A stretch of 64,000 bases of DNA from Eledone cirrhosa (lineage: Eukaryota): assembly GCA_964016885.1 (NCBI GenBank), contig OZ024743.1, forward strand, positions 354,144,001 to 354,208,000, written 5' to 3'. The notes beneath the pieces were generated by a model, which saw only the letters and a list, made by a program, of their open reading frames with translations, had not been told where the DNA came from and ran no database searches. Below, in pieces: positions 9,199 through 27,813 of this stretch (positions within the stretch are counted from its first letter, which is position 1; the number at the start of each line of letters is the position of its first letter). The translations under genes and the position numbers were made by a program.

Positions 9199-10137
9199 GA
9201 TAATAATGGAGCTGCGCGTTGCAAATGGGATACATATGAAAAAGTAAGTCCTTCATCATTGACCCTCCAACCGTCCCAGGCATTTCATCGCTTTAAGGGC
9301 CATATACCTCAGGTTGGTGCGAACAACGGCTAAAAGAAGTCGTTGGGACACGTAAATAAAGGGGACGTTAGGGTGAACAAACAAAATGGTTTAAGCAACG
9401 GAAAGTGAGAAGAAAGAGACAAGTCCCAGATTTCTATGAATACAAACTCGGTGAAATCGTGAACAAGAGACAAAAGACCATCAAACCTGGTTGAAATGTG
9501 AGCAAGGAAGGAATTTCGCACAGGTCTAACGGGGGGAAGAAGAAGGGGTCTGGTCTGCGAATTCGGTAAACATGAGTTCTGTGAAGTCGCAGGAGAGAGA
9601 GAGAGAGAGAGAGAGAGAGAGAGAGAGAGAGAGAGAGAAAAAAATTTCATACCGGCTTGACCAAGAACGCGCGAGAAAAGAAATCGGACAGGTCAAGCGG
9701 GAAGAAAGAGGAGGAAAGGGGAGGAGGAGGAGAGGTAGTGACAGAGAATGAGTGAGTGAAAGTTGAGGAGGAGGCTAACAGAGAGAGAGACTGCTAGAAA
9801 GGGTAAAGATACAAAGAACGAAACAGACGGGTGGCAGCAGAGAAAAAAATATGTGTAAATATGATAATAATGGAGCTGCGCGTTGCAAATGGGATACATA
9901 TGAAAAAGTAAGTCCTTCATCAGTGACCCTCCAACCGTCCCAGGCATTTCATCGCTTTAAGGGCCATATACCTCAGGTTGGTGCGAACAACGGCTAAAAA
10001 AAGTCGTTGGGACACGTAAATAAAGGGGACGTTACGGTGAACAAACAAAATGGTTTAAGCAACGGAAAGTGAGAAGAAAGAGACAAGTCCCAGATTTCTA
10101 TGAATATAAACTCGGTGAAATCGTGAACAAGAGACAA
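9199..10137 (-). mobile_element. Non-coding element with ~275-bp direct terminal repeats (period ~664 bp), PLE/retrozyme-like
   Basis: 9199-9472 recurs at 9863-10137; flanked by (TA)n; carries a structured motif shared with 27170-27813. Confidence 0.65.
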
Positions 10138-10315
10138 ATATATATATATATATATATATATATATATATAAGGGTTAAAATACTGGAGCGTGTTGGAGTT
10201 AAACACCCTCTTCGTATTATAGAAATGACAGTAAAAGGTATAGCTCAATGTAGTTAAACAGAGCCGAAAAATTAAGAGAGTAAAACAAAGAAGCCTTCAA
10301 TACATCAAAAGTCTT

Positions 10316-10362
10316 TATTAGCCGACAATGTTTCGTCCTATTAAGGACTCATCAGGGCAATT
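10316..10362 (-). ncRNA. Minimal type I hammerhead ribozyme in the PLE 3' pseudo-LTR
   Basis: gcc-CTGATGA-gtcc(ttaata)ggac-GAAAC-att-GTC/ggc. Confidence 0.85.
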
Positions 10363-12121
10363 AAAACAACAAGAAGTAATATCGGCAGATACAAGCCGGA
10401 AGCTCCGAAGAATATGGAGTGTACATACACTAAAGTATTGCAAAAATATATAATAAAAATAATAAAAATATATAATAATAATTACTAAGGATGTATATAA
10501 CATTAAGAACCATATTACAAATATAGTCCAAAGCAAAAAAACCTAGAGCTAAACAAAGGTGGTTATATAGAGCAGGAATTATATATAATACAATGTAATA
10601 TAATATAATATAATATACCTTTACCAACATTAAAATTACAATAAAAATCAAAAGGTACAATATGCATATGTATATATGTGCGCACACGTACACACACATA
10701 CACATACAACAATACACACATCCATCTTCAACTGCACAAATTAAACCTTATTAAGAGTTTGAATATAAAAATAAGCATGATAGGAATGAAAATAATAATA
10801 ATAATACTAATACATCTACCCAATATACATGAGGTAATAATATGATATAATTATAAGTAGCACATATAATAAATAATAAACAATACAATTATATACTATA
10901 TAATACAATATAATAGAATAGATATTCTCCGGTTAATTTACACAAACAATATAGATGTCACAATAATAATATAATAATAATATACTAACATTTATAATAT
11001 ACAATATACTAACATTTATAATAAACAATATATAATGGTACTCAAGTTAACAAATCAATTCATACTGGGTTACAGAGTAGGTGAGGAAAAATAAATTGTA
11101 CAATACCCCCCAAAAAATTTTGATGGTACAAAAAATACAAACATCTTACATGATATATAAAGTTTAACATATCATAATGTTACATATAATTAACGGTAAG
11201 TAATAAGGATCAATATTACAATAAAAAATACAATATAATATAATATATTATATAAAATAAATTAACATAATATAATATATAATTACTTATAATTACAAGG
11301 TTGGTAGACAGACATGTATATGGATGAGTGAGTAAGTGCCAGACAGTAAATATAATGCACAGTAGTATTACAAATAAAATATAAAATATAAAATATAGAA
11401 TAAAATAAATAAATAGAATCAACCGGAAATTCAAAAAACAAAAACAAACGTATACATTTAGGTCTCACATGCAGTTAAGTATTTATGTAAAAACTAAGGA
11501 AACAGCCCCTGTAAATGACTCGAAAACCCTATTTGATAAATTAATATTAAAAATATTTAAACTATCCAATAAGGCAGTATAATATTAGCTATAGTTTAAG
11601 TAATACAAAAAGGAATGAAAATTTTTTTTACTATCATATACATAACGATATCTAAAAAACTGAAGTAAGCAGAATTAAGGTAGGCTAATAGGGACAGAAA
11701 TGAAGAAATATATGGAGGATGCAAAGGGGCATAAAATATAGTCGATATACTATATTACATAATAGAAAGGAGCGTAAAAGAGGGGGGGGTTAAATATAAT
11801 CATAGTCAATTTGGAGGGGTTGACAATAAGTTTATGTGCGCATGGGGAGGGGGAAAGGGGGGGGGGTTATCCAAAGAAGAATCCGAATAAAAATAAAAAT
11901 AAGAAAATAAAATAAATAGCGTAAAATATATAATCTTATATACATTCATAAGGTGTAATAGTGAAAATTTAATGCGTAAGAAGATAGATATGGTACAGTA
12001 GCCAAAAGATTATGAGAGCTAGAATAAAGAGTCATAAAAAACCAATGATAATAATGATGATAATAATAATGTTGGCAAACAAAAGAACCTAAACTAAAAA
12101 ATAAATAATGGAATATATCAG

Positions 12122-13330
12122 CTAATGGGTACAATTTGTACTACTAGAACGTTTAGGTTTATAATAAAAGTATGAATTAGAAATAGCGTGGGGGCAAGAA
12201 GAGAATATCTCAGACTTTCTATTAAGTAAGGATGCGCTAGAGAAAATTATAGAGTGTGTCTCGAGGATACAGAGATTACAAAACTTAGTATGTGTAGAAA
12301 GGTGGTTAGAGCGTGCTACTAAACGCAAGTTAAGGCTATATGGTATATTAGCTCCCTTAATATCCCAGATATAATGTGCTAAAGAAGTAGAATTCTTAAA
12401 CTTAACATGTTTGAAATTAGAGATATGAGAGTTAAACCTAGTCTTAAAAGTGTTAGATGTAGAGCCTATATAAGTTCTATTAGAGGAATTAGTTATAACT
12501 TCGCAAGCATAGACAATGTTCTTAGAAAGGCAGTTACCGTTTAAAGGGCAGTTAGCACTCACTCTACAATTGCACTTCCGGGTGTTATTGGTTGGCTCAA
12601 GTGGTGATGCATTACACGTAGGATTGCTATTAGATAAGGACTGTTCTGGTGGTAATGCATTGCCAGATCTGTTCAGACTAGTAGTATGTAGAGAGGAGAA
12701 TCCATCCCTAATTTTCCTATTGTTAGTGCTAGCTAAATGAGAACTAATATTAGGGGTGGTAGAGAATGAAAGTTTAATAACATTTTTATTAAAAATACTA
12801 TGGTATTTATGAGAAGGGGGGAAAGTTTTCTCTAAGATAGAGAAGAAAGACCTAGGGATATTAGTTGATACTTCCTGATTATATGGCGGGTTAAAATAAG
12901 TATTTAATCGCCTTCTATTTTTATTCTTACCGACTCTACCATTATCAAATATCCCACCATCGAGACTAGGGTTACTACAAGGATTAGTTAAACCGCATTC
13001 ATAGAATCAGCCAAAATTTCATTAAGTCTATTACAGTTTCTACCTCCAGTAGATCTGCTGCTGTCCGGAATCCCATGATAAGGATTAGGGCCAATGATAG
13101 GATCAGTAGGAGCAACATTATTAGAATAAGATCCAGCAAAATTATCACCAATGTGTGAGCGCTCAGGGGGTTCAACTTGTTTCCTAGAGGTATTATATTC
13201 ACTATTACGAGTCCGGTGGGTTAACTTATGGATGGGTTCAGATACACCTATATAATTTTTACGGTTACTATGTTTGCTACTCCCATTCATGGCCATGTTA
13301 TGTGATATTATGTTATTATTATTAAAAGTA
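12122..13330 (-). pseudogene. PLE linker plus GIY-YIG endonuclease remnant
   Basis: YFNPPY...IKLSFSTTPNI, then CNCR..CPLNGNC, IVYACEV...TYIGST..FKTRFNSH...LAHYIW...CNLCILE...LLNRKSE..SSCPH. Confidence 0.9.
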
Positions 13331-26840: not shown

Positions 26841-26847
26841 CATTTGC

Positions 26848-26967
26848 GATCTGAGTTCAAATCCCGCCGAGGTTGACTTTGCCTTTCATCCTTACGGGGT
26901 CGATAAAATTAAGTACCAGTAATGCAATGGGTAATTGCTGGCCTTGTGCCTAAAGTAGAAATAATTA
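26848..26967 (+). mobile_element. 5'-truncated Nin-domain SINE
   Basis: B box through tail. Confidence 0.85.
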
Positions 26968-27169
26968 TTTCATTTGCTTATACACACACACACACACACA
27001 CACACATACACACACACATATATATATATATATACAGGCACACACACTCTCTCTCTCTCACACACACACACACACACACACACACACACACACACACACA
27101 CACACACACACACACAGACACACACACACACACACACACATATATATATATATATATATATATATATAT

Positions 27170-27813
27170 ATGAAAAAATGGGGAGAAGAATACTGCAGGT
27201 TGCACATGGATAACATGTTATAAAATGAATCCCTCATCAGTGATTTGCCAACGATCATAGATATTTCATTGCATTAAAAATCATATACCTCACGTTGGTG
27301 CAATAATAACTAAATTAAGTTATTAGGACAATTAAAACGCGTAAAGCGAGTGAGACAAGTAAACAACAAAGAGGAAAGCTAACCGTAGATAGGAAGGGAA
27401 CAAGCTACATAGTTATTCTGTCAGCATAAGTTGGGTGAATATATGAGCGCTTAGAAAAAAGACCTTTCGAGATGAATCCAAATGTAAGAAAGAAGGAAAT
27501 TGTATTCGTCGCGAACGGGGTGAGGTGAGAAGGGGAGAAACAGTGAGTCAGTGAGTGGAAGTGTGGGGAAGAGTTAACTGACATGACAGAGGGGGCGAAA
27601 GAAAGTAGGAGAAACAGAGAGAACGAGGGAGCAGTAAGAGAGAGAGAGAGAAAAACAGAATCGCAGTTTAGGTAAATATATGTGAAAAAATGGGGAGAAG
27701 AATACTGCAGGTTGCACATGGATAACATGTTATAAAATGAGTCCCTCATCAGTTCTTTGCCAACGATCATAGATATTTCATTGCATTAAAAATCATATAC
27801 CTCACGTTGGTGC
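27170..27813 (-). mobile_element. Non-coding element with ~130-bp direct terminal repeats (period ~512 bp)
   Basis: 27171-27302 recurs at 27683-27813; (TA)n flanks; shares a motif with 9199-10137. Confidence 0.65.

Follow-up and report, generated by a model that had tools for sequence, protein, structure and literature searches.

Elements A and B in the window

Two non-coding repeat elements, A and B, are located in the 64-kb stretch of Eledone cirrhosa DNA analysed here (the window), and the question raised by this locus is which RNA is encoded by the motif that they share. With good confidence, we read both as non-coding Penelope-like elements (PLEs), likely derived from Naiad, that carry a hammerhead of reversed block order predicted to cut after AUA.

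Alignment re-found the two elements of the original prediction, in (TA)n and mostly dissimilar, and close alignment of A with B is confined to the motif region. The repeat copies are positioned at 9185-9474 and 9849-10138 in A (period 664) and at 27161-27308 and 27673-27821 in B (period 512). Described earlier as direct terminal repeats, they are indeed repeated copies, but not fixed LTRs: the units are incompletely repeated in tandem, head to tail (pseudo-LTRs), and the right end varies. Element A terminates 3' in the left-hand (TA)n and is 5'-truncated on the right. A Naiad-type ORF (N-terminal GIY-YIG, CxC, DKA, RT) is absent from both elements. The six-helix descriptor detected exactly two motifs in the window and none in 5.7 Mb of shuffled loci. 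One motif copy is intact in each element and neither keeps two; in the right copy of B stem I is broken, with its 3' strand altered (Table 1).

Table 1. Features of elements A and B, in window positions
Feature	Position	Strand	Description
Element A	9198..10138	minus	non-coding, Penelope-like by its anatomy; ~1.4 monomers of 664 nt
Reverse-order hammerhead of A, intact	9912..10013	minus	from descriptor and covariation model
A motif, 5' part		minus	P1a from 10013, then P2 hairpin; P3a 9986-9983; P4a 9981-9976
A motif, site		minus	stem III 5' strand 9973-9968; H17 = A9967; stem I 9966-9960
A motif, 3' part		minus	P3b 9955-9952; G12 9950; P4b 9936-9931; CUGAUGA 9923-9917; P1b 9915-9912
Segment 3' of A core	9863..9911	minus	holds ATTTGCAAC; takes in the optional tail that separates the two 3' termini of the family
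Second motif copy in A	9248..9349	minus	core mutation C3>A at 9259; predicted inactive
Element B	27171..27813	minus	non-coding, Penelope-like by its anatomy; ~1.26 monomers of 512 nt, in (TA)n
Reverse-order hammerhead of B, intact	27229..27329	minus	from descriptor and covariation model
B motif, 5' part		minus	P3a 27303-27300; P4a 27298-27293; stem III 27290-27285
B motif, 3' part		minus	H17 = A27284; stem I from 27283; G12 27267; CUGAUGA 27240-27234; P1b 27232-27229
Truncated motif copy in B	27741..27813	minus	5'-truncated, without P1a and P2; predicted inactive

Genome-wide family and insertion anatomy

Genome searches led to 1810 candidates for A, the best matches being 99-100% identical, and 1153 for B. 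The spaced pattern of the motif gave 10,170 exact genome matches versus 0 for the reversed control, placing it far beyond chance. More than 12,000 motif copies are present in the genome, with arrays of up to 9. Insertion anatomy was studied at 30 A loci and 30 B loci, some of them neighbours or the window's own copies, and revealed 5' truncation, partial tandems and inverted copies. There are two 3' termini, a 30-40-bp tail apart, A ending at query positions 1 and 33. Counting from A9 in 193 motif contexts, 33 end in (TA)n after 10-19 nt and 107 at 50-74 nt, while 45 continue and 8 end elsewhere. A (TA)n target preference was observed, which is also a feature of other PLE clades. Judged by this anatomy, the hosts of the motif are non-coding Penelope-like elements, and the non-autonomous PLE or retrozyme-like family originally suggested is borne out by the truncations, tandems, inversions and (TA)n ends.

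The same architecture in different letters was found in an older family of this genome and at 21 of 120 metagenome loci. The descriptor, however, passes only 4 of 30 loci from the generic pattern, and a looser pattern matched 620 times versus 169 for its control. The family L221-L225 and the tandem units L233-L240, both from the looser pattern, did not fit the fold and were not counted. Locus L302 passes the descriptor, yet it is inside a bacterial-looking ORF and thus probably a chance match.

Fold and core order of the motif

The motif in A and B is real. All previously listed sub-motifs and spacings (N12, N9, the CCAACS/SGTTGG helix and the hairpin) are on the minus strand, where both elements bear a complete hammerhead core (CUGAUGA, GAAA and an AUA site). 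The blocks run from the site through GAAA to CUGAUGA, which is the non-circular 'type-SGC' order, in agreement with the permuted hammerhead that had been proposed. The cleavage site is flanked by stems III and I, and cuts are predicted on the minus strand between 9967 and 9966 in A and between 27284 and 27283 in B. A 4-nt linker joins stem I to the GAAA strand, whose partner is not the strand after CUGAUGA but the upstream strand P3a; the resulting helix P3, the equivalent of stem II, has 4 bp in most copies and continues into helix P4. By analogy with the I-II interaction of types SGC and CSG, P4 may clamp P3 to stem I. The strand after CUGAUGA contributes no more than a single pair (10.1-11.1) before it joins the 5' end of the motif in P1, beside the P2 hairpin. 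None of the three linkers in the reversed ring is thus left open, and the chain has its entry at a junction within 'block C'.

A canonical stem II, in which the strand adjoining CUGANGA on its 3' side pairs with the one immediately preceding GAAA, was not found in the motif, and single-sequence MFE folds recovered only the nested parts of the model. The downstream RGGA...ATCC hairpin of the original prediction did not hold up as a conserved feature, and we rejected it as a stem II, many subfamilies reading AACC there. ATKTGCAAC, on the other hand, is present as described, but it lies outside the putative ribozyme, in the optional PLE tail.

Covariation and core conservation

The model has 34 pairs, which were scored in 52 distinct motif copies. 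Paired cells amounted to 92.9% of 1767, versus 87.2% in shuffles (0 of 500 reached the observed value), although these controls overstate significance because the copies are related and partly chosen by core-containing patterns. When the helices were slid out of register, pairing was 29-48%. Two-sided changes occur in 19 of the 34 pairs, so that six helices and one single pair covary: stem I 5/7, P4 5/6, P2 4/7, stem III 2/5, P3 1/4, P1 1/4 and 10.1-11.1 1/1. Stem I is paired in 92.0% of cells, stem III in 96.2%, P4, the candidate for a stem I–stem II tertiary contact, in 96.2%, and the GAAA strand with upstream P3a in 99%. The 10.1-11.1 pair is formed in 43 copies and unpaired in 9. A measure of further pair types showed no gain over shuffles (410/500), and mutual information was noisy, model pairs being 7 of the 21 top pairs listed. 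The suggested pairing of upstream GTCC with GGAY after CTGATGA, our P1, was found in all 90 copies scored, in three pair types (GUCC/GGAC 86, GUCC/GGAU 2, AUCC/GGAU 2).

Core conservation was evaluated in a core-blind sample, which consisted of the first 100 copies among the 9,604 that match a pattern without core letters. Its 11 invariant core positions, which include CUGANGA, GAA and the A15.1-U16.1 pair, showed 8 deviations in 1100 cells and at most 2 per column; low variation is not unique to the core, since 20 of 41 other free columns also had fewer than 5 deviations. Recurrent core changes affect only the two free positions, H17 (A>C 14 times, never G) and N7 (U>C 11 times). The NUH triplet between stems III and I thus reads AUA in 86 copies, AUC in 14 and AUG in none. 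Wobbles in two hairpins had suggested the plus strand as the functional RNA, which was ruled out by a column test: among 105 copies, three wobble-rich columns are paired 105, 103 and 105 times when read as the minus strand versus 62, 82 and 66 times as the plus strand. On this model, the motif likely cuts its own RNA.

Comparison with known hammerheads and elements

Rfam hammerhead models gave no match on the motif, including among the best 150 matches listed of one search, consistent with the earlier remark that it is not a canonical type I; the search did recover a neighbouring type I hammerhead. The motif does not have the orders of types I, II and III (CGS, GSC and SCG, without pseudoknots). 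A type II hammerhead was also considered and rejected, the GUCC of the motif having no GAAA after it.

The type-SGC order has so far been known only from metatranscriptomes, and Eckert et al. (2023, PMC10085705) report in vitro cleavage for ribozymes of types SGC and CSG in which linker and interaction helix are the same as here. Type SGC (HRIMA-1 and variants), as presented there, has the same site-GAAA-CUGAnGA order and conserved core as our motif, and the short Ia-to-IIb linker (typically 3 nt, against 4 nt here) and the helix clamping stem I to stem II are also common to both. In contrast, block C is uninterrupted in type SGC, whereas the window motif has its stem II 5' strand upstream and continues after CUGAUGA with an extra helix, P1, beside the P2 hairpin. 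As in type CSG, 2 nt connect the interaction helix of the window motif with stem III. Type CSG, for which the same paper reports only two similar natural sequences, from metagenomes, has the same reversed ring of blocks but opens between G and C, while the window motif opens inside block C. Our model indicates that the motif works like SGC and is not a plain member of it, a P1/P2 junction being inserted in block C.

Concerning the host elements, A and B share 5' truncation, partial tandems, inverted copies, the 30-40-bp tail and (TA)n with Naiad PLEs (PMC8557442), but unlike these they encode no RT or endonuclease. Animal non-LTR retrozymes (Cervera and de la Peña 2020, PMC7229834; Li et al. 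2026 preprint) are likewise non-coding, PLE-derived tandem units with one ribozyme each, as the units of A and B carry one ribozyme-like motif. They are defined there by type I hammerheads, which the window motif is not; descriptors of type I would miss it because of its non-circular permutation.

A probable Naiad link and possible sources of mobility

Craig et al. (2021, PMC8557442) found no canonical hammerhead in Naiads, marking only 'HHR_core' or 'HHR_half_core'. The motif would be the ribozyme reported missing. At metagenome locus L276 it lies 3' of, and on one strand with, the C-terminus of a Naiad RT; this C-terminus shares 65% identity with the 80 C-terminal residues of P0029, a protein with an N-terminal GIY-YIG. 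Inspected by eye and not aligned, at least 14 published Naiad consensuses have the fold, or the CSG version of it, at their end (SGC with the junction in 8 clear and 2 partial cases, clean CSG in 6), and both octopus Naiad consensuses seen share the RNA architecture at the 3' end. No fold was found by eye in hits 42 and 43 of the Naiad supplement or in several of parts 17-18. In Naiad-type relatives P3 has 5-7 bp, with a closing G-C pair directly before GAAA. The 3'-end architecture is common to the motif elements, L276 and the published consensuses, which suggests that the window elements are likely Naiad-derived.

In the search for an autonomous partner, 271 motif loci gave no RT match to P0029, only 4 weak matches to its N-terminal part. 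A strict first look at this genome, scoring 53 of 4632 candidates, detected no intact Naiad; the best remnant has 7 stops, and the 3' ends of the remnants are too decayed for a fold to be read (descriptor 0/31). The GIPMG pattern and the 81-aa L276 query each had 0 genome matches, and the DKAxNN pattern had 3, one of them a decayed Naiad. Juxtapositions with Naiad remnants at L387 and L392 look like unrelated insertions.

As far as mobilisation is concerned, the young families could instead be driven by the abundant C-terminal-endonuclease PLEs of the genome and not by Naiad, a proposal we find doubtful. A/B-type elements are young and the Naiads found here are decayed, in line with the description of cephalopod Naiads as remnants by Craig et al. 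(PMC8557442). PF01541 gave 150 matches, and in the 30 top loci and 20 picked stretches examined every readable domain order is RT-then-EN, with long stop-free frames at L201 (938 aa), L203 (1096 aa) and L227 (1023 aa). However, the motif occurs in 0 of 6 inspected elements of this kind within 700-900 nt 3' of the ORF, L227 has a type-I-order core instead, and the architecture matches Naiad 3' ends.

Predicted cleavage and the proposed cycle

An improbable reading holds that the hammerhead-derived fold is kept for binding or positioning of the PLE protein and cleaves poorly or not at all alone. The stem II junction is weak and insertions end at fixed distances from the motif, while for a Poseidon PLE hammerhead cleavage depended on protein, insertion in vitro did not require the hammerhead and was unaffected by mutants of it, and no RNA-seq reads ended at its site (PMC11167929). 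Against this, H17 that is A or C and never G, a free N7 and an otherwise fixed core follow catalytic rules, a variation not obviously needed for binding alone, and the longer, G-C-closed P3 of Naiad-type relatives points the same way. Still less probable is that the helices form between two molecules or tandem repeats, as a dimeric or canonical-order hammerhead and not a pseudoknotted monomer. The monomer requires several crossing helices and the elements do exist as tandems; small PLE hammerheads reportedly cleave as dimers. Nevertheless, all partners are within ~100 nt and covary inside single copies, and co-transcriptional cleavage is reported for monomeric SGC and CSG constructs that share the short linker and the interaction helix (PMC10085705). 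Finally, the double hammerhead or unrelated new self-processing RNA class also raised by the original prediction, to which the missing Rfam match and two extra helices lend some colour, is very unlikely, because stems I and III, the NUH cleavage site and the stem-II-equivalent helix were located on exactly one set of core blocks in S-G-C order. These stems, the site and this helix had not been recognised in the original prediction.

For a self-cleaving SGC-ordered motif of Naiad origin, we propose that tandem copies would be transcribed and cut by the ribozyme into monomers of 512-664 nt, perhaps with help of the PLE protein. Monomers of the family may then plausibly circularise. A PLE RT/GIY-YIG protein supplied in trans would nick (TA)n, and reverse transcription would start at one of two sites 3' of the core; the segment 3' of the A core is likely the initiation region, by analogy with PMC11167929. 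This process would produce 3' ends that are fixed and 5' ends that vary, as well as tandems and inversions.

We lean, with modest confidence, towards a broader reading in which much of the Naiad clade, together with its non-coding parasites, runs on non-circularly permuted hammerheads, among them an undescribed layout with a four-way junction inside block C. They would be the first in cellular genomes, represented over ten thousand times in a single animal, with monomers or circles of 500-750 nt. Non-circularly permuted hammerheads would thereby move from anonymous metatranscriptomic RNAs to animal chromosomes, with a biological host. The count of six possible permutations rests on the stated premise that block C allows no interruption, and this premise would be broken. 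The thousands of natural variants constitute a ready-made mutational scan. Apart from that, the motif offers a testable answer to the apparent lack in Naiads of the ribozyme carried by other PLEs: they may have seemed to be without a hammerhead because descriptors assumed the standard block order.

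Elements A and B and their families

Both non-coding Penelope-like (PLE) insertions, with all their sub-motifs, lie where the original prediction had placed them. Their expected periods of about 664 and 512 nt were measured at 664 (A) and 512 (B), and (TA)n flanks both. Neither element contains an RT or endonuclease frame. First-look searches returned 1810 candidates for family A and 1153 for family B, with best matches 99-100% identical and spread over many contigs; each element belongs to a young, high-copy family. Across the genome, a spaced motif pattern gave 10,170 matches (0 in control) and a sister pattern with other letters at position 11.1 a further 2,196 (0 in control). 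One locus (L448) holds an array of nine motif copies spaced 721-806 nt apart.

Among 30 loci per family, one terminus always abuts (TA)n, and the opposite one is freely variable. Partial head-to-tail tandems occur in both families and neighbouring inverted copies chiefly in family A. Read on the minus strand, the ends represent 5' truncation and a fixed 3' end, like the PLE anatomy in Craig et al. 2021 (PMC8557442). We compared 193 distinct motif contexts: in 33 the element stops 10-19 nt past A9 and in 107 it stops 50-74 nt past it, while 45 run on into another unit or flank and eight end elsewhere. These two 3'-end classes match the pair of RT start sites by which the PLE tail is defined in Frangieh et al. 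2024 (PMC11167929).

Features located in and around the two elements
Feature	Position	Strand	Detail
Element A	9198-10138	-	predicted cleavage after AUA, 9967|9966
Element B	27171-27813	-	predicted cleavage after AUA, 27284|27283
Separate Penelope-like element	10271-14165		inverted ends 542 nt
Canonical type I hammerhead, one inverted end	10317-10361	-	31.7 bits
Canonical type I hammerhead, other inverted end	14075-14119	+	31.7 bits
Broken ORF with GIY-YIG match, within 10271-14165	12125-13006	-	
Fragmented PLE-like RT frames	24863-26856	-	end ~300 nt from element B
Large inverted repeat	47272-50598		617-nt arms, 99% complementary, 2093 nt apart

Fold of the reversed hammerhead

In both elements the blocks run site (S), GAAA (G), CUGAUGA (C), the non-circular permutation of Eckert et al. 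2023 (PMC10085705). On the minus strand of A, AGGUAU-A-UGGCCCU contains the AUA site together with the strands that enter stems III and I, block G is GAA-AUGCCU and block C AGGGUCA-CUGAUGA; B has stem I UGAUUU/AAAUCA and stem III strand AUAUCU. The strand 5' of GAAA and that 3' of CUGAUGA do not pair past one pair. The former pairs with an upstream UYGC (UCGC/GCGA in A, UUGC/GCAA in B), forming P3, the stem II equivalent, which runs on into P4 (CCAAC/GUUGG). The P4 variants CCGAC, CCGAA, CCAGC and CUAGC are each matched by the opposite strand, and P4 lands adjacent to stem I, like the interaction helix of SGC and CSG hammerheads. The proposed pairing of the upstream GTCC with the post-core strand was borne out, as the 5' end of the motif pairs there (P1), with hairpin P2 between P1 and P3. 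Each of the three linkers in the reversed ring is thus closed, and the chain opens via a junction within block C, contrary to the assumption of Eckert et al. that this block is uninterruptible. Rfam gave no match in motif searches, nor among the best 150 matches listed.

Covariation, strand and core

The anticipated covariation was also found: in 52 cluster representatives of 125 distinct full-length copies, related to one another, 92.9% of the 1767 cells are paired; shuffling gives 87.2% and sliding 29-48%. Two-sided changes occur at 19 of 34 pairs, at least one in every helix; by the 'further pair types' measure, however, the copies were no better than shuffles (410/500). Pairing is weakest at 10.1-11.1 (82.7%) and in P1 (86.1%, to which a one-column shift in one subfamily contributes). 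A strand comparison, run on 105 of 120 distinct copies after 15 were dropped because 5' context was missing or redundant, points to the minus strand.

Because the first patterns forced the core, we resampled with P3a, P4 and P1b letters only (9,604 matches, 0 in control). The 11 invariant core positions deviate in only eight of 1100 cells, in a scattered way, over the first 100 of these matches. H17 changes from A to C 14 times, never to G, and N7 from U to C 11 times, both as subfamily-level variation; among other free columns, 21 of 41 have at least five deviations and 20 fewer. A six-helix descriptor found two motifs in the window and accepted 123 of 140 family loci and 8 of 120 metagenome loci (one of the eight probably by chance), whereas 5.7 Mb of shuffled sequence yielded none. 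It passed only 4 of 30 loci matching a generic S-G-C pattern and 0 of 31 Naiad remnants.

One subfamily (L112-L140) has one nucleotide fewer after CUGAUGA together with C11.1, restoring the canonical G10.1-C11.1 pair, and is a natural test of junction geometry.

Relatives and the Naiad link

The generic pattern gave 151 matches against 6 in control, among them a non-coding family of greater age, whose sequence differs but forms the same helices and whose 7-bp P3 stands immediately before GAAA. A related two-subfamily motif, whose stem I, P1 and P4 covary, occurs at 21 of 120 metagenome loci. At one (L276), the motif lies about 390 nt after the RT C-terminus of a Naiad, a PLE clade reported without hammerheads, on the same strand. 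In the 54 Naiad records of the Craig et al. supplement, matches 1-55 of 62 to CTGATGA and 5-13 of three other core variants were read by eye, with record names inferred from the following FASTA header and metadata order. Within this portion, eight records (three Acropora, two octopus, three without a name in the passage) carry the full SGC-with-junction fold and two a partial one; six (three Nippostrongylus, Haemonchus, Stegodyphus mimosarum, one unnamed) carry clean CSG folds. Three records with SGC or CSG folds are marked 'HHR_half_core' by Craig et al. Several other Naiad 3' ends in the supplement have CTGACGA and longer inserts and look like more elaborate variants. Resemblance to the octopus records suggests a cephalopod host for the window's motif. 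Naiads of the E. cirrhosa genome are decayed, their 3' ends retaining just a GAAA...UGAUGA-like order.

Full-text searches covering a minority of subscription journals turned up no link between Naiads and permuted hammerheads, and 'type-SGC' in one paper only. The hammerhead search in bioRxiv 10.64898/2026.07.22.740005 was limited to type I.

Other elements

The RT frames near element B gave no match in a Pfam search and are apparently not joined to it. The large inverted repeat is possibly an inverted PLE insertion. Stop-free RT-then-GIY-YIG frames of 938, 1096 and 1023 aa (L201, L203, L227) indicate canonical PLEs recently active in this genome. Tandem units of 135-142 nt with GAAA before CTGATGA (L240:5964-6540, motif strand; L233, L235-L237) could not be fitted to the motif fold and are possibly another permuted-ribozyme retrozyme family. 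A ~1.9-kb family (L221-L225), with copies 87-96% identical, has CGAAA...CTGATGA spaced differently.

Proposed mechanism

Tandem units would be transcribed and cleaved after AUA, possibly with protein assistance by analogy with Poseidon, and the monomers may circularise. A PLE protein acting in trans would carry out target-primed reverse transcription at (TA)n, from two start sites 3' of the ribozyme. As A and B hold one intact motif each, neither locus would release a doubly cut monomer. We regard the combined explanation, joining the fold, a Naiad-type PLE host and predicted self-cleavage, as probable, and the fold alone as highly likely. The motif is genuine and represents a new form of an established ribozyme, the hammerhead.
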